Positions 3,299-57,162 of a DNA stretch of 64,000 nucleotides are shown here, in pieces; the stretch's first letter is position 1, and the number at the start of each line of letters is the position of its first letter. Source of the DNA: a virus; IMG/VR virus record IMGVR_UViG_3300042556_001828, positions 9,373 through 73,372 of that record, one strand, 5' to 3'. The notes below the pieces were generated by a model, which worked only from the letters and a program-made list of their open reading frames with translations, was not told the origin of the DNA and searched no databases. A program made the translations under genes and the position numbers.

Positions 3299-3300
3299 GT

Positions 3301-4320: not shown

Positions 4321-4351
4321 AGTGCTGTTCTCCGGTTATCTCATCAGTATA

Positions 4352-4387
4352 CAAATAGAAAGGGCTGGCCAGTAACGGCCAGCCCTT
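4352..4387 (-). terminator. Intrinsic terminator-like hairpin after the head operon
   Basis: Inverted repeat agggctggcc-agtaac-ggccagccct followed on the minus strand by a T-rich tract. Confidence 0.6.
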
Positions 4388-4414
4388 CCGTGAAACGATT
4401 GCGCTTGCGTGAGA

Positions 4415-4768: not shown

Positions 4769-4786
4769 TGTTCACTCCGTTATTCT

Positions 4787-5170
4787 TTAGGCGTTCTGCA
4801 TGGCCGCAGCCGCGGCGGCTTGCAACGTTAAAACAGCCTGCGCAATTGCAGGCGTCGCGGCCGCTACGTCGGCAGCGCCGGCGTAAGCAGACGACTTCTC
4901 AGCGCGGCCGCCAAGGCCCGCGGCGGCAAGTACCTCGTCAAGCTGCTTGTTAGCAGCACTGAGCGAGGATACTTGCGCAGCCGCGGCCTTTTCCTGTTCA
5001 GCCGTGTAGAGCACATGCAGTTTGGACGCCGCCGACCACATTTCTGCGGCCTCGCTTTCCGAGCGCGGGGCAATCCCGTGCGCGGCAAGCTTTTCGAAGA
5101 AATGCGGCGCAGCAAGTTCCGTCACGATTGTGGCGTATGCCTGCTCAGCCGCTACCTTAACATTGTCCAT
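4787..5170 (-). CDS. Ala-rich K-x-A-motif protein (putative internal head protein)
   Basis: 127 aa; KVA, KLA, KAA and KSS motifs; directly after the MCP. Confidence 0.75.
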   Translation of the reverse strand: MDNVKVAAEQAYATIVTELAAPHFFEKLAAHGIAPRSESEAAEMWSAASKLHVLYTAEQEKAAAAQVSSLSAANKQLDEVLAAAGLGGRAEKSSAYAGAADVAAATPAIAQAVLTLQAAAAAAMQNA

Positions 5171-18651: not shown

Positions 18652-18677
18652 AGAGCGTATCCGGCGCTAAGCAGTGT

Positions 18678-18884
18678 TCAGTCAATAAACGTAACCACAG
18701 GTACTGTTTCAATCCCCGCGAGTTTCAAAATACCCGGGAAATCTTTTTGGCTGGCGTCTGAATACACAATTCCCTCAGACATATGCAGCGCGACAAAGAT
18801 TGGGTTTCCATTGTCATCTTCGATCACAACGGTGTGTGCCAGTTGCTCTGCCGGCTGCAAGTTATGGTGGGTTTTAACCCGCAT
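18678..18884 (-). CDS. Small hypothetical protein between RNAP genes
   Basis: 68 aa, overlaps the stop of the upstream gene. Confidence 0.6.
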   Translation of the reverse strand: MRVKTHHNLQPAEQLAHTVVIEDDNGNPIFVALHMSEGIVYSDASQKDFPGILKLAGIETVPVVTFID

Positions 18885-19518
18885 ACTTATTCAAGCTCCG
18901 CTGCAGGATAGCAACAGCGCTGGCCTTTACATGCAGATCGTGCGCCGACGCGCCCTTCATCGCGGCAGGATCGGCAGGCGGTGCGCTAGGGTCCATTGGG
19001 CCGCCCGGAGGAAGCGGGCCGCCCGGCGCTTGAGGCGCATTGGGCGCGCCGGGGGCTTGCGGCGGCGGGGCCATTGGGCCACCCGGCAACGCAGACTCAG
19101 CCGGCGGTGCGCCCGGCGAACCCGGCGGCAGAACCAACGACTCGGGCGGCACTTGCACGCCCAGCGCGTTCATAATCGCCGTAAGCTGCTGCTGCATGTT
19201 ATACAGCCTGTAGTCGAGCATATTCATCATCTGCTCAGGCTTGAGCTTCTGCGGCGCCGCTTGGCCGGGCGCAGCAGGCGCTGCCGGCGCGGCCGGAGCG
19301 GCTGGGGCGGCGGGAGGAGCCATGCCCATGGCCGCGGGGTCCATCGGCGCACCGCCCTGCATTGCGGCCGGATCTACAGGAGGCGCCGCGCCCATCGCCG
19401 CGGGGTCCATTGGAGGCGCGCCGCCACCCATCGAGGGGTCGCCGCCGGGCGGAACAACGGCACTTTTTTCGAGGCGCATCTGCGCCAGAGCAAGCAGTTC
19501 AGGGTTAATCGTGTACAT
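18874..19518 (-). CDS. Pro/Ala/Gly-rich disordered protein (K-x-A motifs)
   Basis: 214 aa; GGAGG RBS; EKSA, MKGA, NKYA; PMDPAAM repeats. Confidence 0.75.
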   Translation of the reverse strand: MYTINPELLALAQMRLEKSAVVPPGGDPSMGGGAPPMDPAAMGAAPPVDPAAMQGGAPMDPAAMGMAPPAAPAAPAAPAAPAAPGQAAPQKLKPEQMMNMLDYRLYNMQQQLTAIMNALGVQVPPESLVLPPGSPGAPPAESALPGGPMAPPPQAPGAPNAPQAPGGPLPPGGPMDPSAPPADPAAMKGASAHDLHVKASAVAILQRSLNKYAG

Positions 19519-19539
19519 AAAACCTCCGTGTTATCCGAG

Positions 19540-22500
19540 CTACGTATTATCTTCCACAATATGCACTTGGGTGTCTACGCCTATTTCACCACGCTTGTAC
19601 GCCGCCATAGCGTCGCGCTTGGTGCGATATACGTGGGGTTTAGATTTGTGATTTGTTCGGCTAGACGCCACATACAACCCAGTTTGATAGTCTTTGTTCG
19701 GCACGTAATGCGCTTTAAACGAAGCCGCCGAGAACAGATTTTTGCTGGGCAGCATCTTGTGAATAGCTTCTTTGGCAGCGTCGTCAGTGCTGGGCACGTG
19801 ATACTGCATGGCGTCTCCGTCAAAGTCGGCGCCAAAACCCTTGGTAATCACAGGGTTTACTTCCATGACCTTGTTCTTGGTCAGGCGCGGATAAAACGCC
19901 ATCAGGCCGTAACGGTGCAACACGGGCGCGCGATTAATCACAATCGGCCGGCTGTTCATCTGGGTGTGCAGCTCTTCAAACGCAGCTTTGTTTTTGCCCT
20001 CAACAGCGTCTAGCGCCTGCATTCTGGGCATTCCTCGTCGCACCAACCCGCGCACCACGAACGGCTTGTAAATATCCCATGCCTTCTCTTCGGGCAGTGC
20101 CACCTGATCCATGTCCAGATCCGGGTTGGGCGTAATCACCGCCCGACCCACCAAGTCCACGGTGGAACTCAGCAGCTTGCGCTGAACCGTGCCGTACTTG
20201 GGCGAACTACCGAAAATCTTAGACAAGAAACCCTTAACGTTCCGCTCAACGTTTTTGGGCTGCTGCGGGTCGCCCAAACCGCTGACGGCTTTCACGGCGT
20301 CATACAGGCCCAGCCGCTCGTCGCCATAGCTATCAAAGGCGCCGGATGTTTCGCGCAACACGTGGTTGGCGTCGAGTAACTCTTTGTAAAGATAGTTCGC
20401 GTCGTCTACCAGCGGGAGTTTCTTAGAACCCATCGTCGTTACGGGCCTGAACAACGGCGGCAAGACAGCCACCTTACTCATCATCCAGTCTTTCGGGTGG
20501 ACGCCGGTAGCTTCTGCGCTCTTCAGGAAACCCAGCTTGCGGACAGCGGCGTCACGAATGGTCTTGCGACCTGATTTGATATCTTGGCGGGTCTGCTCAA
20601 TCGCTTTGGGAAGATTAATCTTGGCCAGCGCTGCTTGAATTGCCTCTGGGCCGGTCTTGTCGAACAGTGTGGCTTGGCCGGCAAGGACGCCACGGAATTG
20701 CTTCTCGGTAATACCCAACACACGGCGAATGGGGTCTTCCATGACGGGGTTAGGCATCGGCTCGTGTAATGTTATCTTTGACCACCGATTCCCGCCGTGG
20801 CCGCCCGTCATTGTTTCGTCAAACAGCCCGCCGGCTTTGGGCTTCATCAAGCCTTTCCAGTCGACCGTCTCGCTGTTCTTGATTTCACGATCACCGGCCA
20901 GCGAGTCCACATCCTTGTCCGTCATCGCCATAATGTGGGTCTTCGTGCCCTCGCGCACAGTGTTGATACCCGCGGCTTTAAGCTGATTGACGAACTTGTT
21001 GTACACGTGCGGCACCTTGGGCAGCGGTGGCGAATAGCCCGCCATGAACTGCGACCAGTATTCGGGGTTGGCTTGGCCGCGCACCATCTTGGCGTCGCGA
21101 ATGACTTGGCCGGCGCCGTGAGATAAGAGCGCACCCAGATCCAACATGCCGATGCGCTTGGCGCCTTCGCTACCGCCCTTGGCCGGCGTGCCTTCAGCGG
21201 TATAGCCACCGGTCGAGCGGCCTTGGCCCTTGGACTCAGCGGTGTGGTGCAGCTTCATGAAGAACCGATTGCCGGTCAGCACACCCGGAATATTCCGGCC
21301 CGTCTCAGGGTCCGTGACGTGCTCAGTGTCTGACAAACCGTGCTTCTCAAGTTCTTTCTGCGCAAAATCAATCAGGTCTTTGCTGTTATCAAAGTCGGGG
21401 ATCTTGTACGGCTGACCAGTTTTGGCCGCCACTTTGCCCAAGGCCGCCTCGACAACTTGAGCTGGATTCACGCGGCTAATCAAACCCAGCGGACTGACCA
21501 GCGCCTCGTAAGGATTCCCGTCTTTGTCGTGCGGCATCTGGTGGTCTGGGACGACTTCAGCAATCACGCCCTTGTCACCAAACCGGCCTGTGAGCTTGTC
21601 GCCCACTTCCATTTGAGACTTGTTCTTCACAACAACGCTGACGCCCTTGTCCGTGTGCTCGACGTCAGTCACGATGCCGGGCGAATGGTGGTCCCACGTT
21701 ACTGTCTCGTTGGCAAAGTTACCGCCGCGGCCACGATGGACTTTGCCATAGACAGCGTCGCGCTTCTTGGCCACGAGCACTAACGGATCGCCGTAGTTAA
21801 CTTCCATGCCCTTCTTGATGGCGCCCTTGTCGTCGAAGTTATCCAGCAGCTTTTTGTCATACTCGCCCGGGAACAGACTCACGAACGCCTTTTTGCCGAC
21901 GTGCGTGTTAGCGTCCCACTCGGCTTCGTGCTGATACATGTGCTCGCTGGTCAAGCGCTTGGCGGCAGACTGTGAGATCACAATAGCGTCTTCGTAGTTC
22001 TTGCCTCTAAACGGCAGATACGCCGTACGCAAGTTCATGCCCAGCGCCGCGGTGCCCTGCTTGTCTGTAAAGTTAGAGTGCGCCAGCAGCTGCCCCGGCT
22101 TGATAAAGTCTCCGGCCTGCACAGCGGGCGTCTGCGTCCAGAACGTTTTCCGGTTGAACGGCATGTCGTTATACAGATCTGTCACTTGCTTATTGCCGTC
22201 TTTGTCGCGCCACACAATACTGTCGGGCGTCACGGACTCGACACGGCCGGCCGACTGCGCCCTGACAGCGCCCAGCTTTTCTCCCATGACATCTTCATAA
22301 GAACTGCTTGGATTATGCGCCTGCCCAGACTGCACAAGCGGCGCCTCGGCATTCACGAGGGGCAGCGCCTGCGTAAACATGCGCGAACCCATGATCACAC
22401 GATGGCCCTTGATCATGGTCTTCATCGGCACCATGTTCGACAGGGCCGAGAACGTGTTATCCATGTTGGGCAGGCTGTATTGGGCCTGATCGCGCGGCAC

Positions 22501-24984
22501 GTACTTAATCTTGCCGCCGACTAGTGCCGACACCATCGGCAGGTCATGCTTGTCCTCGCCGGGAAACACCAGCGGAATGTCAGCCAGCTCCTGCGGGGTT
22601 TTATACGTGGTCTGGCCTGTCTTGGTGTCGACCACGGGCGTATAAATCTTGCCGTCTTGGCCCTTCATTGCGCCGCCGGCAAAGCGCATGTCAACACCGA
22701 CCTTGCCGCTGTTACCGCACCAAAAACCGCAATTGCCGTGCCGCCGAACGTACAACAAACCGCCCGGTACCGTGGCGCAGTACACCATGCCGGAATACTG
22801 CTGTGTGAAATAGTGACAACGCCCGTCTCGTGCCGCCCGCGGTAAAACCTGATGGCTATTTTGTTTATGCACATGCACAATCCAGCAGCCACCTGTCGAT
22901 GAGTGCGGCCGACTGTCTTTTTCAAACACAGTGCGCGACGAATACCCGAGCCCAAACGCTAACCGCTCAAAATCGCGAGCAAGTTGCTGACTTGATGTGC
23001 AAAAACATGTGCGCTCGCCCTGTTTGTTTTTGCGGCCCTCGCTTTTCATCAGCGCGTCAAACAACCGAAAACGGGCATTACTGGGCGCGCGAAAAAAAAC
23101 GTCGGGAATCCAGCGCTTGGGGCTGCCGTTAAATTGCTTGAAATACGCAGCAACTTGTTTTGTGGCAATAGTAAACGCTTTGCCGTGATAACCCCACTTA
23201 AACGGCAATTTGTTTAAAAGCGCCCGAATTTGATCGCAATTTTCTGGGTTGTGTTTCTGGCACTGCGTTATTTTTACGTGATATTGCGCCGTATCCGGCC
23301 GATATACGCAATTGCCTTCACCTAAATACCAACCTAGTAATTCAGCCCAATCGGCAATATCGACTGCGTCAACTACGGCCCGATTATTGCTGGTGTACTC
23401 TGGTTGCGGCACAGCAAATGTAGTTACTGCGTCGCCTTCGTACGCATCAAAGCCGCCGGATAGAACGCCACGAAACTTTAAATGCATATGCGGCGCAAGC
23501 TCTATTCGATACGCGGCGCCGGCGTACAACGGTCGCGTATACATGCGATGATTTGGCGTAACCAGATAATTTATTTTACCTGTGTTGCCGCCGTACATTA
23601 TTCCGGCGTAATGCGCGGCGTGTAGTTTTTCTGCGACGTGGAATGACAACACACCGGCGGCGTTTAAGCAAGCAAACTCGTCAGCGTCTGTTACATCTGG
23701 CCATTTTTTCCACCCGCTACGCGTCATCACTTCAGTTTCAGCGTCATAACACTCCGGCGTGCGCAAGTAGTCAATAAAGCCCAGATGGCTTGGCTGGACG
23801 CTACGCGACTCAGCCGGTACCGAATCCAAGCTACCAATGCCGCCTTCGCCCAGTCGTGTCACGCGCGTTTGGTGATCAAAAATCTCAGCCGGGTTAATTT
23901 CTTCCAGACTTGAACCCAGCCCAGACCCGATCAGCGCGGCACTGATAGCTTTGTTAAATACGCCGCTGGGAATATGGTCTAGTGACTTCTTGGCCGTGGC
24001 TTTCCAGAGGAGCTGCCGCAGGTTCTTCTTGTCTTTCGTGAAGCGCTCGGCCAGCAGATCTTCAGGACCATGTACTGATTGAAAAGCCATGCTATCACGG
24101 TCGTCTGATTCGGCTTCTTTGCGATTGACCGCGATGAGCTTCTTGGTGATCGCCAGAATCGTGTCGGGCGTCATGTGCTTGTGCGACGTGCCAAGTGTGC
24201 GTCGGGTAACGTCTTCGTCTAGTTCGGTCTTGGCGAACTCCTCGTTAATAGCTTTGGCTTTTTCTTCAGCTGTGGCGCCCGCGATTGGTTTATTCACAAG
24301 CCGTTGATACAGCTTATCCAGCGTGCCCGCGTCGCCCTTCTCCATGTTGACAGCCGTGATCTCGTTGCCCCACGCCTGCCGCATGGCTTGCTCGGGCACG
24401 CCCATGTGGCGCAACAGGGGCATAAGCGGAATCTGCGCTTGGCCAATCTGGATCTTGAACACACCTGTTTGCGGGTCGAGATAATACCTATGTGAACGAC
24501 CTTTACCGGGAAGCGTATTGACGTGCGCTTCCAGCTCGCCGTTCTCTTTCTCGCGGGTAAACACGCCCGGGCGTAGGCGCATCTGGTGGGCCAACGTGTA
24601 CTCAACGCCCTTGTTCACAAACGTGCCGGAGTCTGTAAGATACGGCACATTGGCAATCGTGGCCCGGCGCTGCGCAACAGGCTGATTGGTTTTGTTATCA
24701 ATGAGCGTCCACGTGCCCTGCATCTTGCGCGCTAGCGAGCCGCGCGTCAGCACAGCTTTCTTCTGGTCAGCCTTCGCATACATCTCAGGGCCGGCGTAGC
24801 CCACATCTTGCAGGTGCAACGTGTACAGATCATTCTTGATCGGCTCGATACCCTGCGCGCTGGACAATGCCCGCTCAAAGATATTTTTACGCATCCCAGC
24901 CACGTCGCCGAATGCACGCGGCTGTAAGGGTTGCGGCGGCTGCGTAAGGGCAGGCAGGGGTGGTGCGGAAAAAGGCTCGGCCAT
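19540..24984 (-). CDS. rpoB: Phage RNA polymerase beta + beta'(N-terminal) fusion, intein-containing
   Basis: Beta motifs: RVTRLGEGG, NYEDAIVIS, GDKLTGRFGDKGV, MKLHH, KRIGMLD. Then beta' motifs: KPKAGGLFD, VDLVGRAVI, NRAPVLHR and catalytic GADFDGD at 19813-19833. Confidence 0.92.
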   Translation of the reverse strand: MAEPFSAPPLPALTQPPQPLQPRAFGDVAGMRKNIFERALSSAQGIEPIKNDLYTLHLQDVGYAGPEMYAKADQKKAVLTRGSLARKMQGTWTLIDNKTNQPVAQRRATIANVPYLTDSGTFVNKGVEYTLAHQMRLRPGVFTREKENGELEAHVNTLPGKGRSHRYYLDPQTGVFKIQIGQAQIPLMPLLRHMGVPEQAMRQAWGNEITAVNMEKGDAGTLDKLYQRLVNKPIAGATAEEKAKAINEEFAKTELDEDVTRRTLGTSHKHMTPDTILAITKKLIAVNRKEAESDDRDSMAFQSVHGPEDLLAERFTKDKKNLRQLLWKATAKKSLDHIPSGVFNKAISAALIGSGLGSSLEEINPAEIFDHQTRVTRLGEGGIGSLDSVPAESRSVQPSHLGFIDYLRTPECYDAETEVMTRSGWKKWPDVTDADEFACLNAAGVLSFHVAEKLHAAHYAGIMYGGNTGKINYLVTPNHRMYTRPLYAGAAYRIELAPHMHLKFRGVLSGGFDAYEGDAVTTFAVPQPEYTSNNRAVVDAVDIADWAELLGWYLGEGNCVYRPDTAQYHVKITQCQKHNPENCDQIRALLNKLPFKWGYHGKAFTIATKQVAAYFKQFNGSPKRWIPDVFFRAPSNARFRLFDALMKSEGRKNKQGERTCFCTSSQQLARDFERLAFGLGYSSRTVFEKDSRPHSSTGGCWIVHVHKQNSHQVLPRAARDGRCHYFTQQYSGMVYCATVPGGLLYVRRHGNCGFWCGNSGKVGVDMRFAGGAMKGQDGKIYTPVVDTKTGQTTYKTPQELADIPLVFPGEDKHDLPMVSALVGGKIKYVPRDQAQYSLPNMDNTFSALSNMVPMKTMIKGHRVIMGSRMFTQALPLVNAEAPLVQSGQAHNPSSSYEDVMGEKLGAVRAQSAGRVESVTPDSIVWRDKDGNKQVTDLYNDMPFNRKTFWTQTPAVQAGDFIKPGQLLAHSNFTDKQGTAALGMNLRTAYLPFRGKNYEDAIVISQSAAKRLTSEHMYQHEAEWDANTHVGKKAFVSLFPGEYDKKLLDNFDDKGAIKKGMEVNYGDPLVLVAKKRDAVYGKVHRGRGGNFANETVTWDHHSPGIVTDVEHTDKGVSVVVKNKSQMEVGDKLTGRFGDKGVIAEVVPDHQMPHDKDGNPYEALVSPLGLISRVNPAQVVEAALGKVAAKTGQPYKIPDFDNSKDLIDFAQKELEKHGLSDTEHVTDPETGRNIPGVLTGNRFFMKLHHTAESKGQGRSTGGYTAEGTPAKGGSEGAKRIGMLDLGALLSHGAGQVIRDAKMVRGQANPEYWSQFMAGYSPPLPKVPHVYNKFVNQLKAAGINTVREGTKTHIMAMTDKDVDSLAGDREIKNSETVDWKGLMKPKAGGLFDETMTGGHGGNRWSKITLHEPMPNPVMEDPIRRVLGITEKQFRGVLAGQATLFDKTGPEAIQAALAKINLPKAIEQTRQDIKSGRKTIRDAAVRKLGFLKSAEATGVHPKDWMMSKVAVLPPLFRPVTTMGSKKLPLVDDANYLYKELLDANHVLRETSGAFDSYGDERLGLYDAVKAVSGLGDPQQPKNVERNVKGFLSKIFGSSPKYGTVQRKLLSSTVDLVGRAVITPNPDLDMDQVALPEEKAWDIYKPFVVRGLVRRGMPRMQALDAVEGKNKAAFEELHTQMNSRPIVINRAPVLHRYGLMAFYPRLTKNKVMEVNPVITKGFGADFDGDAMQYHVPSTDDAAKEAIHKMLPSKNLFSAASFKAHYVPNKDYQTGLYVASSRTNHKSKPHVYRTKRDAMAAYKRGEIGVDTQVHIVEDNT
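22711..23751 (-). mobile_element. Intein (347 aa) with LAGLIDADG homing endonuclease in RNAP beta
   Basis: Starts CYDAETEVMTRSGWK after YLRTPE; block B VTPNHRM; endonuclease motifs LLGWYLGEG and LFDALMKSEG; ends VYCATVPGGLLYVRR...WCGN followed by Ser+1 (SGKVG). Confidence 0.9.
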
Positions 24985-43276: not shown

Positions 43277-43972
43277 TCACTGCGGCGTTGCCATGCCGCT
43301 GCCGATAAGCTTGGCGGCAGACGCGGCATTGTTGGTCGTGCCGTAGGCTTTTTGCGCTGTATTGGCCGCGTTCATTACGGGCTTGAGCGTTGTTGGCACA
43401 CGGGCCGCAGCCCCGGCTGCCGCCTGTGTCGCCTGCAACGGCTTCAGTACTTGACCCACGCCGCCAATCGCTGCCGCCGGGGCAATCGTGGCCGCGGTAT
43501 CGACAATGTTGAATGCCCGGTCAGAAAAGTCCCGGGCCCCTTGAGAGACGCCCGGCTGCTGCTCTACGGTTTTCCACGCGGCATCGCCTGCACTGCCAGC
43601 CTGATGCGTGCCGGCTAAACCCTGCGCGCCCAGCCCCAGCGAGTTTGCAAGATCTTGGCCATACCCACGCGCAACATTCGCGTAATTCCCCGCGGTGCCC
43701 GCCACGGTATTAACAGCCTCGTTCGAAAAAGGCTGTTGCCCCACGAGTGACCCGGCCGCGTTGCCAATCAGCATGCCACCCGCGCCAATACCAGCGCCAG
43801 CAGCACCCAGCCCTGCGCCTACGGCACCAGTCATGCCCTTGAACGTCCGCGCGCCGTTGTTCCACATCTGGCTGCCCAGCGTTGATGCGTTGTCCAGCAC
43901 GCCTGCGGATTTCATACGGCCGCCCAACTGCTGTCCAAATTCATATGGCGTCATGGTCATGATTTCAGGCAC
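43277..43972 (-). CDS. Gly/Ala-rich K-x-A protein
   Basis: MTPYEFGQQLGGRMKSAG; glycine zipper. Confidence 0.65.
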   Translation of the reverse strand: MPEIMTMTPYEFGQQLGGRMKSAGVLDNASTLGSQMWNNGARTFKGMTGAVGAGLGAAGAGIGAGGMLIGNAAGSLVGQQPFSNEAVNTVAGTAGNYANVARGYGQDLANSLGLGAQGLAGTHQAGSAGDAAWKTVEQQPGVSQGARDFSDRAFNIVDTAATIAPAAAIGGVGQVLKPLQATQAAAGAAARVPTTLKPVMNAANTAQKAYGTTNNAASAAKLIGSGMATPQ

Positions 43973-44307
43973 TTTCGTTTCTGGCAGGCTTTTCTATAGT
44001 CCGCAACCATTTTGCGGACGTCCTTATTGTAGCACTTGAAGTTCATAAAGTGCCCGAACACGATATGGCACGGCTGGGCGCATAATGTTATCAAATTCGT
44101 TTCGCTGAGTTCTTTATCCGCGTCGAAACTTACTGGAATGATGTGGTGCACGATTAAATTCTCGCGCCGGCCGCAGGCCATGCACTGGGGCTCTAGTTCT
44201 AGGTGCTTGGCCCGGATTGCGTGCCATTGGCTGGCGCGCTGGCGCATCGCTAAGAGCTTGCGGGGACGCCACGAGACAGGCAGCAAGTTGAGTAAGAATT
44301 CAAGCAT
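43957..44307 (-). CDS. HNH endonuclease
   Basis: CMACG...VHHIIP...NLITLC...CHIVFGH. Confidence 0.85.
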   Translation of the reverse strand: MLEFLLNLLPVSWRPRKLLAMRQRASQWHAIRAKHLELEPQCMACGRRENLIVHHIIPVSFDADKELSETNLITLCAQPCHIVFGHFMNFKCYNKDVRKMVADYRKACQKRKCLKS

Positions 44308-44848
44308 GGTGATCATCGTCCCAGCCACGAAACACCACGGAATACCGCTGCGCTTGTACGGGCAAAATTTCGTGCGTCCATGTGAACCGAATGTCGTCGC
44401 GTATTTGGACGACACTGCGCGGCGGCAACACGACAGCGTGCGATTCAGCTGGATCTTTGCGTTTAAATACCATTGTGGCGGGCGAGCCCAGACTGAGTAC
44501 GGTGATGACTTTGCCGGCGCTGGGCGCGTCAATGTGGGCCCGAATGACATCCCCGGGCCTGTATTCGTTGACTGTGATGCTCAGCGGCGGCGTAGAGAGT
44601 AATTCCAGCGCGCACAGCCGGGCGCCCAGCGCAACAAAGTGCTCAGGAATAGTGGCGGAAACAAGGTGGTTGCTGTACACCCGCGGATCGCCGTAGCGCT
44701 GAATCGTGCTGCGCCCCGCTGTGTCTTTGTAGCCAAACTGGACGGGCGCCAGTAGTTTGGGCACGAGCGCCAGCTCTTCGCTCGCTGTAATAAACTCGCC
44801 GTAGAGAGACAAGCCAATGTGCTCAAGCCCTGTCGCGATTTGTTCCAT
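44300..44848 (-). CDS. AlkB-family 2OG-Fe(II) dioxygenase
   Basis: VNEY, HID, LSLGS, HEI, RYSVVFR. Confidence 0.85.
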   Translation of the reverse strand: MEQIATGLEHIGLSLYGEFITASEELALVPKLLAPVQFGYKDTAGRSTIQRYGDPRVYSNHLVSATIPEHFVALGARLCALELLSTPPLSITVNEYRPGDVIRAHIDAPSAGKVITVLSLGSPATMVFKRKDPAESHAVVLPPRSVVQIRDDIRFTWTHEILPVQAQRYSVVFRGWDDDHHA

Positions 44849-44981
44849 GCTGCGCGCCTATTTCCTTGCTGCCCGCTTTGTGCTTGGGCACATACGGGCA
44901 GTTTTTGCATTTGTTTCCGCAACACCTGCCGTATTGAAGAAGAACATCCCGGGACATGGGCTGTGGCTTCGGCTGGCTCAC
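44823..44981 (-). CDS. Small Cys-rich protein (CCGNKCKNCPY)
   Basis: Hand-translated MSQPKPQPMSRDVLLQYGRCCGNKCKNCPYVPK...; GTGA overlap with the upstream stop; below the ORF-track cutoff. Confidence 0.6.
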   Translation of the reverse strand: MSQPKPQPMSRDVLLQYGRCCGNKCKNCPYVPKHKAGSKEIGAQHGTNRDRA

Positions 44982-45328
44982 AGCACGGTCATGTTGGTAA
45001 ACGCGCGCTCATACGCGGCATAGATCTCCGCATAGGCGACGCCCCACGCCGCGTCATGGGCGAGCTTATTAAATGCCGCGTCGTCGGCGGCGCTGTCGAG
45101 CATGTGGTTCCATGCCCGCGCGTGCGCCCACTCGTGGATGAGCACGTCCATGGCGCGGGATTCACACAGGGCGCTGTCGATCTGGATATGGAACTTCTTG
45201 CCCTGTTTCCAGCACCGACCCTCTAGCTTAGAGAGCTGTATACGCCGCACGCTCACAGGAAATGCCACGGGGCAGTCCTTTTTGAGCATCCGCAAAAGCG
45301 CCTGATACATCTTGAATCTAGCCGCCAT
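44978..45328 (-). CDS. SprT-like/zincin metallopeptidase
   Basis: LIHEWAHA...HDAAWG. Confidence 0.75.
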   Translation of the reverse strand: MAARFKMYQALLRMLKKDCPVAFPVSVRRIQLSKLEGRCWKQGKKFHIQIDSALCESRAMDVLIHEWAHARAWNHMLDSAADDAAFNKLAHDAAWGVAYAEIYAAYERAFTNMTVL

Positions 45329-45370
45329 GCTCAAGCTCCTGTGTAGGCGTCCATGCCACAACAGGCTTGA

Positions 45371-47350
45371 TTATAACGCAGGCGCAGAATATTCGCCGCA
45401 GGTAAAACTGGCGCTAACTTTCTCGGCTAATTGGGCGGGATTTTCTTTATGCCGGCTGCCGATTTCACGCAATAAGTTCCTGAACTCTTCGTTGAGTTTC
45501 TCTTTCTCGGCGGTAAGTCTTTCTAGGACTTCGTCGCCCGTACGCTCGCGCTTGTAGCCCATGAGCTTGCCCAACAGACTGGGTTCTTCAGAGCTAGAGA
45601 TATACCGCTGCACCGCTACGTTTTTGAGTTCCTCTGGTAAGCCAGCGTGGGAGTCAAAGCGCAGGCCTCTACCACGCGCCTGCTGCGTCCGGGCTTCGTT
45701 CCAGTGCGGGTCCATGAGCTGAATTAAGCTCGTGCCCTTGGTGGAAATACCCTCGGCGCCGGCAGGGCCAATGAGTAACGCCCTGAGCTTGCCGGCGTTG
45801 TAGGCATCGACGGCTGCTTGGCGCACCTTGGGAGAAACACCGCCGTGGAAGAACGCATGGGGCACGCCAGCCTGTGTTAAGCCAGCAGCGTAGGGGCCCA
45901 AGCCAGAATCCACAAAGTTGGAATAGATAATAGCTTTCTTGCGCTCATCTGAGTCCAGCGTGCTCTTGAGGTTCTTGAACGCCTCCTGCATCTTGGCTGA
46001 CTGCTGGAACGCTTTGAGGGGATCTCTATCGGCCCGAAATGGCTGCGTGGATAAACCCACTTGGCGTAGGCCCGTCATAAAGCTATTTAATTTAGCTAGT
46101 TCCTGCCGAGATAGCGGGAACTCTTTATCTAGCTTCCACAAAAACCCCGGCGGAACTTTCGTGCGCACAGCTTTCTGGATGCGCTGCTGCTCTGCAGAAA
46201 GTGGTACCCGTATAGTCTGCTCGTTGATATTCACGCCCTCGGGAGTCTTGCTGGGCTGATAATCTACTTTGCCCTCCAGCAAACTCCTGAGCTTGGGGCC
46301 ATTTCTAATAATGGGCTTCATGCCCGGTGTCGCGCCATGCAGCCAGCCCCAGAGTCCCGGCCAGACTTTCTTGTAGCCCACGTACTCTTTCTCAAACTGG
46401 TCAGGCGTGATCTCCTGCTTGTTGAGCATCGAGACAATGCTGGCCAGATCTTTGGGCTCATTGGTAATGGGCGTGCCAGTTAATAACATTAACCGGTCCG
46501 CGTTTTGGGCGGCCTGAAAAGCAGCGCGCGTACTGGCCGCGTCTGGATTGCGCAATCTGGCTGCTTCGTCCATGACCAGTGTCTCGGGCTGGTCTTTGAA
46601 CTGCTTGCCCATGCCCAGCCCCGTGTAGCTCATGATCTCGGGCTGGCTGTCGGTGAATTTCTTCACTTCTTTCTGGAAGTTCCCCCTAAGACTAGCCGGG
46701 GCCACAATGCCGTAGCTCCCGCCGTGCTGCCTCTGGGCCGCTTCAGCCGCTGCAAGGGCTGAGAGACTCTTCCCAGAGCCCAGCCCGTGATAGACGAGCA
46801 TACGGGGGTTCTCGCCAGTCACGCGGTCTGAGATGCGCTGCTGGTGGTCTTGCAGCTGGATGCCGGGAAGTAAGTCAGCTTGTTTACCCAAGCCTTGCAC
46901 GTATTTCTGCATGGCTTTGCGCTGATACGCGTCGAGCATCTCAGCCGTGGCGCCCGATTGCTCTGCCGGTACGAGCTTGCTGGGGTCGATTCCCCAGTTG
47001 CGCAGCGCCCAGCCACGTCGTGGCGTGGGATTATTAACAAAGGGGCCGCCGTGCCGCGCTTTGAAGCTTGCCCAGCGCTTGATCTGGCGTTCGTCTTCGT
47101 CTGGGATACGCCGGCCGCCTGAGTAGCGCTTGTACCACTGCGCCCAGCCCTTGGGATCGTGCTCTGACACCCATTCGGGCTTCCATGCGCCCAAGCTAGC
47201 GAGTCTGGGGCCTTGATTACGGTATAGCGCGTCGTACACGCCCAAGTTCTCAAGCTGCTCTGGTGTGTAGTCAGGGGTAAAGTCTACAGCGTGCTTTGCC
47301 CACGCCTTGCCCGCGGCGCTCGCAATGATATCTGTATCGAGGTCGGGCAT
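45371..47350 (-). CDS. SNF2/SF2 helicase with an extra N-terminal domain
   Basis: HGLGSGKS, DEAA, LTGTP, EGIS, QARGRGLR; N-domain DPKGWAQWYKRY...RQIKRW; domains bounded by AKHA and GKQA. Confidence 0.9.
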   Translation of the reverse strand: MPDLDTDIIASAAGKAWAKHAVDFTPDYTPEQLENLGVYDALYRNQGPRLASLGAWKPEWVSEHDPKGWAQWYKRYSGGRRIPDEDERQIKRWASFKARHGGPFVNNPTPRRGWALRNWGIDPSKLVPAEQSGATAEMLDAYQRKAMQKYVQGLGKQADLLPGIQLQDHQQRISDRVTGENPRMLVYHGLGSGKSLSALAAAEAAQRQHGGSYGIVAPASLRGNFQKEVKKFTDSQPEIMSYTGLGMGKQFKDQPETLVMDEAARLRNPDAASTRAAFQAAQNADRLMLLTGTPITNEPKDLASIVSMLNKQEITPDQFEKEYVGYKKVWPGLWGWLHGATPGMKPIIRNGPKLRSLLEGKVDYQPSKTPEGVNINEQTIRVPLSAEQQRIQKAVRTKVPPGFLWKLDKEFPLSRQELAKLNSFMTGLRQVGLSTQPFRADRDPLKAFQQSAKMQEAFKNLKSTLDSDERKKAIIYSNFVDSGLGPYAAGLTQAGVPHAFFHGGVSPKVRQAAVDAYNAGKLRALLIGPAGAEGISTKGTSLIQLMDPHWNEARTQQARGRGLRFDSHAGLPEELKNVAVQRYISSSEEPSLLGKLMGYKRERTGDEVLERLTAEKEKLNEEFRNLLREIGSRHKENPAQLAEKVSASFTCGEYSAPAL

Positions 47351-47416
47351 GGCTACTTTTCCACACTACACGCAGGTTGCACCCTACACCGGCGCAGTGT
47401 AGTGGGCAAAACTAGT

Positions 47417-48259
47417 TTACTGCACGGCATCGAGGATAGGCGTCTGGCCCTCTGTGGCCCGTGCGCGTTGGGCTCGTTCGTACTGCTCGATCTGTGATTC
47501 TACCCAATCGGCGTATAAACTCACACGGGTATGGGCCGACTCGTCTGTGTACGTCCCGTTGGGCTTGCCGTCGACAGCCATAAGAAACGAGTGGATTCCT
47601 GCGAGTTTGTTCTCGATGAATAAGCCGCCGCCAGAATCCCCCGGGGTAATTAAGAACTCCAGCGCTGTTTTGTTATCTTTGCTCGGGTCGCACACTAACA
47701 CAGAGCGCTCTAGGCTTGAAATCTTGTTACTTCCAGCCCTGCGCTTGCCGTCTTGCTCGGTCATGCCTGTATGAAAAGTCCCGAAAAAGCCAAACCCAGC
47801 CAGCGTAACAGGCTTGCCCAGCTCATCGGTGTCGGTGTTTAGCTCTGGGTAAAAGTCCAACCCTAGGTCTTTCTCGGAGTAGCCCAGCGCGATGTCGTAA
47901 TAGCCGTTTTTGCCGTGATCAAACAGCGGGTGCGAGATCGTATGCACAAGCGGGTATTCGACGGGCTTTTCTTCGTCGCCCAAGATCGTGGGCTTTTCGA
48001 CGCCCTCCAGCACATGCGCTGCGGTGAGAACCCAGTGCGGCCTGATCAAGACAGCCGACGCGTACCAGTGCACCACAGAATCAGGCGTGGGCTTCTCTAG
48101 GCCCTGCGCCCGAATTCGCTTCACAAACGGAAACTTCTTGCCGAACGCGACGTACTTGCTGTCGGGCGTGTCAGGATCCCGTGTGCCGGCAAGAGTTGCT
48201 GCGTCAGACAGCACTAAAACAAACCACAGGAGGAAGATGAACCATTGGCGTGCGTCCAT
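47417..48259 (-). CDS. Secreted trypsin-like serine protease
   Basis: Signal peptide; LTAAH, YDIAL, GDSGG triad. Confidence 0.92.
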   Translation of the reverse strand: MDARQWFIFLLWFVLVLSDAATLAGTRDPDTPDSKYVAFGKKFPFVKRIRAQGLEKPTPDSVVHWYASAVLIRPHWVLTAAHVLEGVEKPTILGDEEKPVEYPLVHTISHPLFDHGKNGYYDIALGYSEKDLGLDFYPELNTDTDELGKPVTLAGFGFFGTFHTGMTEQDGKRRAGSNKISSLERSVLVCDPSKDNKTALEFLITPGDSGGGLFIENKLAGIHSFLMAVDGKPNGTYTDESAHTRVSLYADWVESQIEQYERAQRARATEGQTPILDAVQ

Positions 48260-48302
48260 GCTCGCCTCCGTGGTTAATGTTTTAGTTGGCTACATAAAAC
48301 GC

Positions 48303-49709
48303 TTAGCGAATACCCAACTGCTTTTGCGCGTTAATTACAGCTGATTCTTGTCCAAGCTGTTGCTGCAGCCGACCTTCAGCAGCAGTTGGGGCTGGCGCTG
48401 GCGTATTGGGCTCCAAACCCTGCGGGCTATTACCCTGTACTCGCGCGGCCTCTAACGATCCGGGTGTTTCACCACGCGCAAAAGCTTCCCGTAGCCGTGT
48501 ATTCTCGCGATAACCCGGAGAATTTGTTGCGCCGCGTTGAATACCAGCGTGGCCACTATGAATGCGACCGCCAAGCCCGGCATCTACCATATTGGCATCG
48601 GGATCGCTGTAGTCTTCACCCAAAAATTTTAAGTGCGCGCCCGGAACTGCTTTTGCGCGCTCAAGCTCTTTTGCGTAACTTGTTTCTGGTTTTTGTTTGC
48701 CCTTGTACATGCTCTTCAGCCAGTCCTGCGCCTGCCCCATCGTGCCCGGCCGGAAGTGCTCCAGCGCGCCACCAGCCAGACCACCAGCGGCCCCACCCCC
48801 CAAAGCGCCACGCAGCGCGGCCCCAAACCGCCCACGTCGCTGCCGACCCACCACGTTACCCTCGTCATCATAGATATCTTCATGGCCCGGCGCGATAAGC
48901 CCGTGCAGGCCACCCAGCGCAGCACCACCCAGAGCGCCAGCGCCAGCAGCCGGCATGACTTTCTGCAATCCAGCCGGAATGTTCTTGGCAAAATCGCCGA
49001 TATTAAACGCAGCAACCTTGGCGCCAAAGTTACGCAGACTGGCAGACTTAGCTTCTTCTTTCTTTTCTTCCTTCTTGGGCGGAAGCGGTGTTTTCTTACC
49101 AGTGAAAGATAAGCTACCGGGCGTGCCAGTGCGGAAAGAAAGCCGGCTATCGGTCGGTTGGCGCGCAGCTACCTTGGTATCGTCTTCAGCGGGCTTTTTC
49201 TTCTTACCCATCAAGCCCTTGGCCAGCGCAGCGCCAGCAATACCGCCACCCAGTAAACCAGTGTTCGCCCGCTCAGCCGCCAACTCCTCTGGCCGATCCA
49301 TAATCATTCTGTTCACGTCGTCGCGCAGAAACCGCGCGTCCGGCGACGGGCCGGTTAACGTGTTTGCACCCGTCAGCTGATCAATCTTGTCGCTGAAATA
49401 CTCGCGGCGCCGTTCGGCTTCGCCTACTTCACCAGCATCGCGCGAGCCCATTAACCCGTAACCAGCGCCCGCACCAGCGCCAATCAGGCCGCCGACTCCA
49501 GCGCCGTGCAGGGCACCACTCAGTCGCTTACCTTTGCCGCCCATGATCGCGCCGCCCAGACCACCCGCCGCAGCGCCAATGCCACCGCCCGCTAAACCGT
49601 GCGCGAGCATAGCGTTGAGAGCGCTATTAGATTGCTTTTCAAACGCACACATGGCCGCCTGATACAGCTGTCCGGCGCCAGAACCATTGTTGTTATTTAC
49701 GTAACGCAT
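48303..49709 (-). CDS. Gly-zipper K-x-A polyprotein-like virion protein
   Basis: Several Gly-zipper helices; EKQS, TKVA, AKSA, AKVA. Confidence 0.7.
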   Translation of the reverse strand: MRYVNNNNGSGAGQLYQAAMCAFEKQSNSALNAMLAHGLAGGGIGAAAGGLGGAIMGGKGKRLSGALHGAGVGGLIGAGAGAGYGLMGSRDAGEVGEAERRREYFSDKIDQLTGANTLTGPSPDARFLRDDVNRMIMDRPEELAAERANTGLLGGGIAGAALAKGLMGKKKKPAEDDTKVAARQPTDSRLSFRTGTPGSLSFTGKKTPLPPKKEEKKEEAKSASLRNFGAKVAAFNIGDFAKNIPAGLQKVMPAAGAGALGGAALGGLHGLIAPGHEDIYDDEGNVVGRQRRGRFGAALRGALGGGAAGGLAGGALEHFRPGTMGQAQDWLKSMYKGKQKPETSYAKELERAKAVPGAHLKFLGEDYSDPDANMVDAGLGGRIHSGHAGIQRGATNSPGYRENTRLREAFARGETPGSLEAARVQGNSPQGLEPNTPAPAPTAAEGRLQQQLGQESAVINAQKQLGIR

Positions 49710-49761
49710 GCGTGTACTCTCCAGAAATAAATACGAGGTGGTTTGTGGCTCTAGTATAACA

Positions 49762-51693
49762 CTAATTCTTTCGGGCTACAGCTAACTCTGCCGCTTTACT
49801 TACAAATTCTTCTGCGCTAGCGAACTTATGGTCGTCAGAAAGCAATGGATAAGCATGGGCCAGAGTCTTGGGCTTAAGTAACCCATACTCTTTCATGAGC
49901 TTGGCGGTGTTTAAGATATTTTTACGCTTGTTAGCTGCGTGCATATAAGCGGCAGCTACGCCAGCACCCGTCCCAGCTAGGCCCACACCAGCGCCGTCCA
50001 TGCCGCCCAGATACCCCAAGCCGGCCGTGCCCAGTAAACCAAGGGCACCAGCACCAGCAGCGTACATCTTGGGATCCGGCGCCATATCGCTGAGGTTATA
50101 TTTGTCTTGGCCCTGTGAATTTCTCACGATGTGGCGCAGGGATGACTGAAAGCCATCGCGATTCAGGCCCCGAGCGCGCAATGTGTTGTCATCGGGCCGG
50201 ACAAGGGCTTTGAGCTGGCCATATTGCTGCACAGCGTGTTGAATCTGGTCAGGGCCTGCAAAACTGGAATAGTTATCTAAACCCAAGGGGCGGGCAGCTT
50301 TGTATAGCTGGCTGGCGGCGCCGTATTTTTGCTGCATCGCTTTAATCGCGGCTGGGCTTAGTTGCGCGCCAATTTGAAACGCGTCGGCTTTTTCGCCTTT
50401 TTCGTTTACAAAATCAGCTACTTGCCTCGCATGCAAACCGTCATCAAATTCTTCTTCTCGTTCATTTTGTCGATAAATTTTTGTGCCGTCAGGCAGCGTG
50501 GCGTAATGCATGCGATCTTTTGGATATTGTCGGCCCTTACGCGAATTTGGTCCGCCGCCAAACATATAAGCTGCGCCAAGCCCGCCAGCAGTAAGTAAAC
50601 CGCCACCCGCAATTGCCGCGCCGAGCGTTGGATCAAATGCTGTTTTGGCCAGCATCAGCGCCGAGCACTTGCAGTTCCACTTGCGCAGGGACTTGTTAAT
50701 ACGCGAGTCTGGGTCTTTGGCTGTCGCGGCGCCAGTATTTACGCTCTTCATGCCGCACATACGCGAGCAGAAAGAGTTCTGTCGCTTAGCCCGGTCGCCG
50801 CTGGGATTAGACTCAGTGACAGGCGCTTTGAGATTCCCGCCGTGTTCGCGCTCGTAGCTCTTGCGGCCCTTCTCGTTCAGGCCGCCTTCGTCGTTCTTAC
50901 CAGCACTGCGTTGCCATGCGGGAGAACTGGCAGCCGTTTTGGAACTATCTGGTGAGTTCTTTGTGCCAAACGCCGCATTGCCGTTGATGTTGCCAGACGC
51001 AGACAAAGCACCAAACGAGTTGATCGGGTTGGCAGAAGGCGAGTTCATGCCTGCGCCCTGTGCTTGTGCCGGCTGGGCAGCTTGGGGCTGTTGCGGCTGC
51101 GCTGGTTGGGCCGGCTGCTGCATACCCATCGGCATAGGGGTGGTATTAACGGGCATGGCGTATCGCTTGATTCCGACGTTTTGCGGCATTTTTGCGGCCA
51201 TTCGGGCCTGCTGCTCAGCTTTTTCGTTCTCAATCGCCTGCATAATCGGCTGCGAAAGAACGACGGCAAGCTTCTTCAAAAGTGAATTAACATCACTGTT
51301 AACAGTTTCACCCGCCAATTCCTCGCTACTCTGGTTGACTTCGTCCTCATTCCGCGTCTGGATCGGCGAAGCCTTATCTTCCCCCGCGTTCTCTGCCGTA
51401 ACGTGTTCATCGCCGGCAGCTACGGGCTTGTCTGAGTGCGGAATATCTACCTTGAGCAGCCCAGAGTTCGCTTTTTTAACACATTCGTTGTAAATCGTTA
51501 GCCCAATAGTGTTTACGGCAAAAGCCTTGTTAATGTTATCCATAGCTGCGGCCTTTTCCTTGTCATCGGGTTTCTTTTTATGCGCATACAGGGGCAAGTC
51601 TTTCTGCCCCGGGTATTCTTTTGCCCAACGTTTCGCGATATCTGGATGCTGCGACCAGAGGAAACGCCGCTGCTTCTCGGACTTAAATGGCAT
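49762..51693 (-). CDS. K-x-A-punctuated multidomain virion protein
   Basis: MPFKSEKQRRFLW...AKRW minidomain; SPAWQR...GGLNEKGR...SFCSRM...SRINKSLRKWNC domain (DUF6321-like from memory); TM segments; EKAA, SKTA, AKTA, HKFA. Confidence 0.7.
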   Translation of the reverse strand: MPFKSEKQRRFLWSQHPDIAKRWAKEYPGQKDLPLYAHKKKPDDKEKAAAMDNINKAFAVNTIGLTIYNECVKKANSGLLKVDIPHSDKPVAAGDEHVTAENAGEDKASPIQTRNEDEVNQSSEELAGETVNSDVNSLLKKLAVVLSQPIMQAIENEKAEQQARMAAKMPQNVGIKRYAMPVNTTPMPMGMQQPAQPAQPQQPQAAQPAQAQGAGMNSPSANPINSFGALSASGNINGNAAFGTKNSPDSSKTAASSPAWQRSAGKNDEGGLNEKGRKSYEREHGGNLKAPVTESNPSGDRAKRQNSFCSRMCGMKSVNTGAATAKDPDSRINKSLRKWNCKCSALMLAKTAFDPTLGAAIAGGGLLTAGGLGAAYMFGGGPNSRKGRQYPKDRMHYATLPDGTKIYRQNEREEEFDDGLHARQVADFVNEKGEKADAFQIGAQLSPAAIKAMQQKYGAASQLYKAARPLGLDNYSSFAGPDQIQHAVQQYGQLKALVRPDDNTLRARGLNRDGFQSSLRHIVRNSQGQDKYNLSDMAPDPKMYAAGAGALGLLGTAGLGYLGGMDGAGVGLAGTGAGVAAAYMHAANKRKNILNTAKLMKEYGLLKPKTLAHAYPLLSDDHKFASAEEFVSKAAELAVARKN

Positions 51694-51757
51694 AGCTCTG
51701 ATATTAGCTCCCAAGCTGGATAGAAGTATTTTGGCACAAGGGGTGGGAAATGCAAAG

Positions 51758-55040: not shown

Positions 55041-55247
55041 GAGTACCCCTTAAAAAGAAAAAGTCCCGTTGCAATTTAACCCGGCGCACACGGGACCACA
55101 TGCACGGGCGAGGGCTGTGTTTCACAATCTCGTGCGCTGGCGACAACCCCTGACCAGCGCGCAATATCCAAACTTCTGCACATCATCAACGCACCGGCTG
55201 AGCCAGACCGCGTTGGGTATGCACTGGCGTTAGACGACCAGATGGTA

Positions 55248-55520
55248 GCCTGCCGTACCTAGCGCATCCTTACCCTGACTGGCCTAACCATGCCTGCCAT
55301 GCCGTGTCCTGCCGCCCGTTCCCAGCCTAGCCGGGCCATGACCACTCCGTGCCTGCCGTGCCTAACCGAACCACGTCATGCCGCGCCCTGCCTCACCACG
55401 ACCATGCCTGCCGTGCCCCACCCTGCCCCGCCGGAGCTGGCCAAGCCTAACCCCGCCGTGCCTGCCACACCATTCCCAGCCCTGCCGAGACTAGCCCTGC
55501 CGAACCAAGCCTGCCGTGTC
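55248..55520 (-). repeat. Non-coding GGY-NN pentamer array; five units delimited by GGCAGGC (candidate guide-RNA array, VIPR-like)
   Basis: The minus strand parses as GGCA GGC TT GGT TC GGC AG GGC TA GTC TC GGC AG GGC TG GGA AT GGT GT GGCA GGC AC GGC GG GGT TA... Plus-strand gcctgcc occurs at 55248, 55292, 55351, 55406, 55460 and 55509, giving units of 44, 59, 55, 54 and 49 nt. Confidence 0.85.
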
Positions 55521-55523
55521 TCA

Positions 55524-55985
55524 TCAGGCTCGCGTAGCTTGCCGGCTCGTGCGGCGAGCTACGCGATCAATCGCAGCGAATACAGGAGTTAACTCCTGCA
55601 GGGTTTGGTACTTTCGGCGGACGCGCTGGAACTCTTCCAGCCCCTGCTCAAGCAATTGCGCCCGCATGTCTTCGTCACTCATCACGTCCTCTAACGTGCG
55701 GTAACCGCCGCCAGCGTAACGATCCGACTTGAGCGAGACATACATCGGCACCGTCACATCGCCGCCTTCGGTGGGCAGCACATTGATATTTAAACGGATA
55801 ACTCGTCGCGCCTGCTCCAGACGAAACTGGTGCGCCGCTTTCGTGTTATTCCATTCAAACTCTCTGTGCAGCGCCGTGTCACGGTTACGGGCAAACTCAA
55901 CGATAGCTTCGGGCAGTAGTTGCCCGTCGTTAGCGTTACGGATTTGCTCCAACTCTGCCCGAATCCGATCTCTGTTCTCTGACAT
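55524..55985 (-). CDS. Partner protein of the RAMP-like gene
   Basis: 153 aa from MSENRD (AAGGA RBS); ELEQI...GQLLPEAIVEFAR...LHREFEWNNTKAAHQFRLEQARRVIR; lies between the RAMP gene and the array. Confidence 0.8.
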   Translation of the reverse strand: MSENRDRIRAELEQIRNANDGQLLPEAIVEFARNRDTALHREFEWNNTKAAHQFRLEQARRVIRLNINVLPTEGGDVTVPMYVSLKSDRYAGGGYRTLEDVMSDEDMRAQLLEQGLEEFQRVRRKYQTLQELTPVFAAIDRVARRTSRQATRA

Positions 55986-55999
55986 CACGTGTCCTTTCT

Positions 56000-56755
56000 T
56001 TAACCGCGAACACACTCAAAGTGGCCCCAACCCATGCCGCATGAGTTGGGAGAATCAGCCCGACCCTCGCCAATGCCGACTTGCATACCCGCGCGGAGCA
56101 TGAGATTGGCAATGTCAGCCGGAGTGAACATATCCGCGTCAAAGCGGATACGCACCTTAGCTTCCCACGTGTCATACATGGCCCGAACCCGGATGTCGGC
56201 GACACCCGTGGCGTTGCGAACCGTGTGCTCGACGTGCCGCGGGACTGCATTCACGAGCTTACCACGTGAATCGCGGGCGTGAAGCCGGATCAGCGGCGTC
56301 CCCTCGACGCTGTCAAACCCGTCGGCTTCCACGAAAACCGCCTTCTTGGCCTTGGTCTTGTGGAACCCGACAACCACACAGGAATCGACCAGCGCGTTGC
56401 GGAGCGCGCCAGCCGGGATACCGCGCCAGCCCTGCTTCGACCGGTGCTGGGCCTCTTCGAAGTTGGCATCGAAGTCCTTGGCTGCGCGCTTCTTGCCCTT
56501 GCTGGCTGTAGAGCCCGCCGCCTGCTTCTCGCGCATTATGTTCCGCGCCTTGGCGCCGAACGCTAGCTGGACATAAGGCGCTGTACCGCGGATCGGGATC
56601 TCCACGGTCTTGAAGTTGGGCGCCGTGATCGTGACACCCAACCGATCGGCCACAGCCGAATCACTCTTATCATCCTTGGGCGTCAGGTGTTCCACAGCAG
56701 CCTTGGGAGCCTTGGGAGCCTTCGTCTTCTTAGCACCTTTCAACAGCGTTGCCAT
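56000..56755 (-). CDS. Stand-alone Cas7/Csm3-like RAMP protein (Vipr-like)
   Basis: 251 aa; beta1 VEIPIRGTAPY; GIPAGALRNAL (cf. IPGSSLKGAL); thumb-like VRNATGVADIRVR; G-rich loop GIGEGR...GMGWGHF at the C-terminus; basic KAP-repeat N-tail. Confidence 0.75.
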   Translation of the reverse strand: MATLLKGAKKTKAPKAPKAAVEHLTPKDDKSDSAVADRLGVTITAPNFKTVEIPIRGTAPYVQLAFGAKARNIMREKQAAGSTASKGKKRAAKDFDANFEEAQHRSKQGWRGIPAGALRNALVDSCVVVGFHKTKAKKAVFVEADGFDSVEGTPLIRLHARDSRGKLVNAVPRHVEHTVRNATGVADIRVRAMYDTWEAKVRIRFDADMFTPADIANLMLRAGMQVGIGEGRADSPNSCGMGWGHFECVRG

Positions 56756-56814: not shown

Positions 56815-56820
56815 CGAAAA

Positions 56821-57162
56821 TGGAGGCGGCCGGATTTGCACCGGCGTCCAGAGTAAATTCCACAAAGACATCTACATCGTTATCGCGTTGTTCTCACACT
56901 CCGCGCAAAGCCAGCCGATTATCGGCGTCAGGTGGGCTACCACCATCTTTGGCTGTCTCTCCAGCCTGCCCGACTTCTTCCAGTCTTCCAGCGTGAGGGG
57001 CGATAGCGTCACGCGCGCTACCCGATCACTGCACTAGGCAGCGAGAGCGGGGACACTGTTGAAAGTGCCAATTAACATGTGATTAGCTTTTTACGTGGCC
57101 AGCTAATCAACCACGGCATGCAGTTCAAACCTTCCTCATCCTGTCGATACCAGTACGCCCCC
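56821..57162 (-). ncRNA. ssrA: tmRNA
   Basis: 5' GGGGGCG / 3' CGCCTCC-A acceptor with G3:U70; TCGAC 5' motif; T-arm GCCGG-TGCAAAT-CCGGC; tag ORF 57034-57069 GTFNSVPALAA-stop. Confidence 0.92.

Follow-up and report, generated by a model that had tools for sequence, protein, structure and literature searches.

What can a tract of short, imperfect five-base repeats be doing directly behind two small phage genes? We address this question for an array at 55248..55520 on the minus strand of the window, by which we mean the whole 64,000-nucleotide stretch of viral DNA analysed here. A sequence-only reading had parsed the tract into five units, in which a near-constant GGY triplet alternates with a variable dinucleotide (NN), and had favoured independent guides over slippage of a simple repeat. 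We conclude that the repeat very probably encodes five short guide RNAs of a phage-borne VIPR system, laid out as a staggered array.

VIPR, a gene silencer related to CRISPR and reported in 2026, comprises the genes vipr and vap together with GGY/NN vrRNAs, recognizes DNA with a 1-nt skip, and represses transcription in competing phages (10.64898/2026.04.26.720920). The skip and the silencing have been demonstrated for type II VIPR only, and the control of satellites is also type II. In the accessible part of 10.64898/2026.04.26.720927, the Vipr of SUSP1, a minimal RAMP, is shown to form a filament on RNA—one subunit per pentamer, with GGY buried and NN exposed. The layout of interest here is named in the legend of fig. 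S18 of 10.64898/2026.04.26.720920, which refers to a ‘staggered vrRNA array’ with guides from 1-nt overlapping positions. Neither the junction sequence nor a VIPR type number appears in the accessible text or legends of that report, the figures and data of which may give them. The accessible part of 10.64898/2026.10.15.759431 holds no mention that we found of the staggered layout, its processing, or GGCA, and that of 10.64898/2026.10.21.760802 reports 99 VIPR-like clusters; beyond these four reports, we found no further VIPR literature.

Layout of the array

The array consists of a leader pentamer, five GGY/NN units, and six GGCA|GGC junctions, with GGCAGGC starting on the minus strand at 55515, 55466, 55412, 55357, 55298, and 55254. 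Successive junctions are 49, 54, 55, 59, and 44 nt apart; as the sequence-only reading had pointed out, the length takes the form 5n+4 in four of the five units, with unit 3 at 55 nt. A four-base step and 5n+4 spacing imply that two pentamer guides overlap by 1 nt—the final G of GGCAG closes one guide and opens the next.

All units lie on the minus strand. Unit 1 (55467..55515; 49 nt, 9 pentamers), unit 2 (55413..55466; 54 nt, 10 pentamers), and unit 3 (55358..55412; 55 nt, with a six-base step at its second position) have no close partner among 124 parsed units from 13 arrays. Unit 4 (55299..55357; 59 nt) and unit 5 (55255..55298; 44 nt), the last, are both shared with the closest relative, locus L007, where the counterpart of unit 5 is again the last unit. 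Unit 4 contains internal +1 and -1 steps, and its length is 59 nt because the six-base and four-base steps cancel.

The pentamer spacing stands well clear of its control: 26 GGY..GGY pairs at distance 5 occur in 55240-55530, whereas 1000 dinucleotide-shuffled versions of this region have a mean of 2.5 (sd 1.5) and a maximum of 11. When pairs are counted in 200-nt segments, the array holds 22 and the best segment elsewhere in the 64 kb holds 4; there is only one GGY/NN array in the whole 73-kb contig. Our own parse reproduced the earlier NN lists unit by unit, irregular steps included, and the degenerate GGY positions are present as listed. Aligned at their best register, the NN of the five units agree at 5-7 of 12-16 bases, in line with the earlier view that internal NN are unrelated. 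The further claim that mostly AC or AT stands beside the junctions is correct for the window; in relatives it is a tendency only, with many other dinucleotides flanking GGCA. The array RNA shows no stable fold (z +0.71), an Rfam search returned no match to it, and the units abut one another, without the structured 3' tail that SUSP1 guides carry.

The off-register steps of units 3 and 4 are beyond what a strict pentamer code explains. In both the window (55412-55299) and L007 (~4340-4500), two units have a six-base step as their second, and the compensating four-base step is also kept in the unit common to both arrays; the pentamer register is thus broken in a conserved way.

The genes upstream of the array

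The gene at 56000..56755 (minus strand) encodes a 251-aa protein of phrog_4652 (E 1.2e-13), modelled with a RAMP/RRM fold, a thumb, and a C-terminal glycine-rich loop. Pfam and PDB sequence searches with this protein were blank, but it has 2358 relatives; the structure model, built from 83 of them, is confident, with a pLDDT of 86.8. Foldseek with the model gave at least 37 matches at E<=0.001 (best E 6.7e-5), and among the matches listed all are CRISPR RAMPs from Csm, Cmr, Cas7, or gRAMP complexes. VIA-align agreed, with a best Z of 9.9 (rmsd 3.5, 147 aligned) and CRISPR complexes or subunits in all of the best 31 rows.

The connection to VIPR runs through SUSP1. We take YP_009199429.1 to be the described SUSP1 Vipr because GGY/NN tracts flank its gene and its residues fit the published numbering (H17, K33, R138, D177-R179); it is also assigned to phrog_4652 (E 1.4e-96). 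The two proteins match weakly by BLASTP (E 3e-4 over 42 aa), and profile comparison by hhalign gives 88.9% (E 2.4e-6, 173 columns). According to the accessible part of 10.64898/2026.04.26.720927, R138, D177, and R179 of SUSP1 Vipr contact the guide, and R138 and D177 are needed for silencing; hhalign pairs these three residues with R191, E230, and R232 of the window protein, which are invariant in the 83 aligned relatives. SUSP1 H17 and W178 are not conserved, with L64 and G231 at those alignment positions, and the window protein has a lysine-rich N-terminus of 40 aa, low-confidence in the model, that sets it apart from SUSP1 Vipr. By sequence family and modelled fold, the 251-aa protein is identified as Vipr and the locus as VIPR.

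The vap position is occupied by a 153-aa accessory gene (55524..55985, minus strand; phrog_15946) that stops a few bases ahead of the array. This gene accompanies vipr—among 59 farther loci, comprising 57 from GTDB genomes and the phages Quico and Cy-LDV1, it does so in 49. Its product has no detectable relation to SUSP1 vap1 (hhalign 0.2%, phrog_15946 vs phrog_5926) and searches of Pfam, PADLOC, and PDB gave nothing noteworthy; its Atlas neighbours are unnamed viral clusters. A single-sequence model was poor (pLDDT 43.7), and a fold common to this protein and vap1 may still exist.

The locus is minimal, consisting of vipr and one accessory gene with no CRISPR array or cas operon; no other cas gene was recognised nearby when 33 ORFs were scanned in PHROGs and 8 in Pfam. 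Neither gene has a cas or PADLOC match, an Rfam search of the window gave no CRISPR repeat, and no nuclease gene or ribozyme was found in the locus. A tmRNA gene at 56818..57162 (minus strand) lies 63 nt upstream of vipr; it is probably a neighbour outside the VIPR system because L007 has no tmRNA match. Similar tmRNA-like matches are also present upstream of vipr in L008 and G001. About 150 nt past the array, the RNA fold contains a hairpin with a U-rich tract (55052..55096, minus strand) that is a possible terminator of the operon; the hairpin was not among the results of a terminator scan.

Comparison with known systems

As far as the legend of fig. S18 describes the published staggered arrays (10.64898/2026.04.26.720920), the window locus resembles them in having a stand-alone RAMP with one accessory gene, no cas genes, and a phage carrier. 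It likewise has GGY/NN pentamers and consecutive guides that overlap by 1 nt, a comparison drawn from the legend, figure apart. No difference from those arrays has been demonstrated, and the window locus or its clade may be in the figures or data S1-S4 of the same report; the locus is a further example of the published staggered layout. In size, too, the units fit the GGY-conserved, NN-variable tract of VIPR guides, which have ~9-16 pentamers: those of the window have 8-11 each, or 9-12 with the shared junction pentamer counted.

Type II VIPR of SUSP1 is alike in the PHROG family of Vipr, in the residues R138, D177 (as E), and R179, in the order vipr-accessory-array, and in a similar guide length. 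However, each SUSP1 guide is a separate RNA of ~100 nt that has a structured 3' tail and contains mostly GGT, whereas the guides of the window are joined to one another, lack tails, and contain mostly GGC. The accessory genes also belong to different families (see above). Class 1 CRISPR RAMPs (Csm3, Cmr4, Cas7, and Cas5 of types III, IV, and VII) share the RRM/RAMP fold and the glycine-rich loop, and window Vipr is presumed to form a filament on guide RNA as they do. In contrast to class 1 CRISPR systems, the window lacks a repeat-spacer array, further cas genes were not recognised near the locus, and the guide is a pentamer code.

Two named phages carry the same pair of genes together with GGCA-step arrays: mycobacteriophage Quico (NC_028751; vipr 30%, accessory 35%) and cyanophage Cy-LDV1 (BK059895; vipr 51%, accessory 34%), in both of which vipr and the accessory gene are annotated as hypothetical proteins only. 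These phages are 47-59 kb in size, with the locus near repressor genes and the arrays upstream of or between genes. Their staggered GGCA arrays lie at 2608-2848 of the Quico locus (L059), and at 4677-4858 and 5475-5616 of the Cy-LDV1 locus (L058). A vipr-like gene was matched in 27 Mycobacterium phage records.

Array grammar across relatives

Among 22 viral and metagenome loci, 20 have an array directly behind the second gene, and the remaining 2 break off inside vipr. We parsed 19 arrays, namely that of the window and those of 18 of the 22 loci (the 2 ending in vipr and the duplicates L011 and L014 were left out); several of the 19 are close kin. Over their 1324 pentamers, entropy by position is 0.44, 0.73, 0.95, 1.89, and 1.93 bits—GGY is conserved and NN is near-random. 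Units of 6-11 pentamers form the majority. GGCA accounts for 146 of the 164 four-base steps, and A occupies base 4 in 157 of them, compared with 36% in ordinary pentamers; on both counts, the junction looks like a recognised site.

An array was found in 49 of the 59 farther loci, always on the vipr strand, the other 10 having none at the threshold used. Here the off-register steps are NGCA in 287 of 361 cases, and the junction, in which the sequence-only reading had suspected a processing or filament-capping signal, is a boundary conserved well beyond the window. Four loci (L090, L102, L107, and L113) consistently have CGCA rather than GGCA at the junction, which makes GCA|G the fixed part.

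Two further observations concern other layouts. In L101 (2083-3281), six-base steps recur in addition to four-base ones, possibly as a further layout. In L201 (G055:C1:5255-8791), from a related 169-kb phage, many GGY/NN-like tracts lie at ~2250-3500 on the minus strand, upstream of a distant Vipr (30%), and alternate with a conserved, seemingly structured spacer of ~40 nt; one phage family thus contains a second kind of array layout. No Rfam match was found here at E<=0.1.

Turnover of units and spread of the cassette

Comparison with L007 shows how arrays change between near relatives. The proteins of the two loci are 92-93% identical, both genes are intact, and the leader and 3' flank are alike; however, only 2 of the 5 window units are shared, and the other 3 are wholly different. 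Unit 4 keeps 16/16 NN and 21/24 GGY bases over its 8 steps of equal length, and unit 5 keeps 14/16 and 22/24 against the last L007 unit, for 30/32 NN and 43/48 GGY bases over the equal-length steps of both. L001 and L002 have 7 of 11 units in common. Whole units are thus gained, lost, or exchanged between relatives, with no evident polarity, because the last unit is common to the window and L007 and the first to L001 and L002. Together with the Vipr-family RAMP gene ahead of the array and the contrast between conserved GGY and variable NN, this turnover bears out the earlier preference for independent guides over slippage.

The cassette itself is found in few members of the phage group: vipr was matched in 3 of 50 related phage records (50 of 63 loci were submitted), and in 2 of the 20 that are near-complete. 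Between the window and L007, the cassette is more alike than the neighbouring genes (about 50%), which suggests that it moves between phages.

Searches for targets

The sequence-only reading had expected an excess of gapped matches to the NN strings; in the searches run, matches stayed at chance level. Locally, six guide readings with skips of 0-3 were compared with the window's own contig and 23 loci, with 20 shuffles each. No self-target in the contig exceeded the shuffle maximum, the best 1-nt-skip matches being 14/18, 15/20, 12/16, 14/20, 9/10, and 12/16; matches with a skip of 3 were rejected as targets, as they are the array itself.

Outside the local set, the searches covered units 1 and 2. 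With up to 3 mismatches, unit 1 gave 1 match (15/18) in three related phage records, compared with 0 for the reversed control and ~0.2 expected by a rough estimate. Two exact scans of IMG/VR were made, both without a shuffled control: 8 NN of unit 1 gave 28 stretches, of which 2 reach the ninth NN (~1.75 expected), and 6 stretches, in 3 related pairs, matched the inner 8 NN of unit 2, none of them reaching either end pair. The unit 1 stretches lie mostly on unrelated AT-rich contigs, with 5 of the 28 in a wobble-aligned open frame. Unit 2 gave 1 match in five planctomycete genomes, equal to the 1 match of its control. Because these searches were narrow and found no target, we infer guide function from SUSP1.

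A proposed mechanism and its rivals

We propose that the locus works as follows. On a single strand, vipr, the accessory gene, and the array follow one another head to tail, and one transcript probably spans all three. Judging by its fold and kept residues, Vipr would polymerise along the array RNA, each subunit covering a pentamer so that GGY is buried and NN stays exposed. Wherever two guides meet at GGCA|G, a single G would serve both; the register would slip by one base, the filament could not run on, and five guides of 8-11 pentamers would be set off from one another. Cleavage at the junction, or close to it, would most likely free the individual guides. By analogy with SUSP1, each guide would then read double-stranded DNA at two bases of every three (the 1-nt skip) and silence transcription by binding; likely targets are satellites or rival phages that share the host.

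The step from array to single guides is where the main rival arises. The array might stay uncut, as one long multivalent RNA in which the one-base slip merely breaks the filament into guide segments; we hold this to be possible but on the whole doubtful. The locus has no nuclease gene or ribozyme, the units are without tails or hairpins, and the confirmation by sRNA-seq in the text of 10.64898/2026.04.26.720920 covers the ribozyme and single-guide layouts, not the staggered one. Yet a phase break needs just a missing base, and the junction is far more constrained than that, as the counts for GGCA and for A at base 4 show; moreover, the legend of fig. S18, the part of that source that names the layout, speaks of ‘individual processed vrRNAs’. 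A less likely alternative, and in our view an improbable one, is that the guides are partly decayed or now targetless, their NN variety coming from drift, slippage, and recombination between units. The absence of any target found, the off-register steps in units 3 and 4, and the repetitive NN of several farther arrays (L004, L010, and L021 among them) would all fit; however, both genes have stayed intact and 92-93% identical to those of L007 while three of five units became wholly different, and the target searches took in few guides and few likely targets. In the two shared units, NN are kept as well as GGY, although recent descent could give the same result. We reject an ordinary minisatellite or small coding region unconnected with the upstream genes, to which we give next to no credence. 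Tandem Repeats Finder does report two weak pieces in the array (periods 25 and 15), and a plus-strand frame of 100 codons overlaps part of it, but no minus-strand frame of at least 50 codons covers the array. Linkage to the RAMP gene is tight and its strand fixed across 69 loci, and conservation is position-specific while lengths and register vary freely between relatives.

Within the guide-array reading, a bolder and rather unlikely proposal is that, throughout a large clade, the near-invariant (N)GCA|GG is cut by Vipr itself in a Cas6-like manner, with whole units swapped fast, as spacers are, in the absence of Cas1. If true, one small RAMP would both mature and use guides from a poly-guide transcript, and a self-processing, tail-less array of this kind could serve as a compact tool for multiplex gene silencing. 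Three residues that are invariant in the clade and have no RNA-binding role assigned in SUSP1—D187, R189, and C126—are candidates for the cut. On this bolder reading, the six-base and four-base internal steps kept between the window and L007 may mean that three-base and one-base reading steps are tolerated by the code.

With VIPR and the staggered layout published in 2026, the discovery value of the locus is small; it presents the layout cleanly in a setting that is new, a family of ~200-kb lake phages that encode a multi-subunit RNA polymerase of their own and of which only a few carry the cassette. The locus offers a way to test how single guides arise from a staggered array and how new ones are added to it, and the fixed junction sequence and the near-twin L007, with three or four swapped units, allow exact predictions. 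The loci of Quico, from the cultured mycobacteriophages, and of Cy-LDV1 are practical test beds for staggered GGCA arrays.

The phage and its setting

The carrier is a phage: its contig is catalogued as viral and contains PhoH, tRNAs, and genes resembling those for RNA polymerase beta, and its relatives are ~200-kb IMG/VR phages. A conserved 313-aa protein, which has no family match and is taken as the capsid protein, finds 63 IMG/VR loci, many of them on records near 200 kb. Two large genes at 16780-24984 of the window (624 and 1814 aa) have matches of the RNA polymerase beta type, and by these matches the phage is predicted to encode its own multi-subunit RNA polymerase.

Lake-water metagenomes contain the VIPR locus; 24 runs are listed, 12 of them with half the words or more and 8 from which the locus may derive. 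In contigs from 4 lake runs, which cover the array in part, no gain or loss of units is seen. At 55344, a variable position in unit 4, one contig of run X9 differs toward the L007 base at a depth below 5, and this may be an error. In the genome collection, the closest Vipr (71%) comes from a Planctomycetaceae-binned contig on which a neighbouring phage gene is present as well, a weak lead to the host. Elsewhere in the window (43280-51714), several long glycine/alanine-rich ORFs contain repeated hydrophobic segments.
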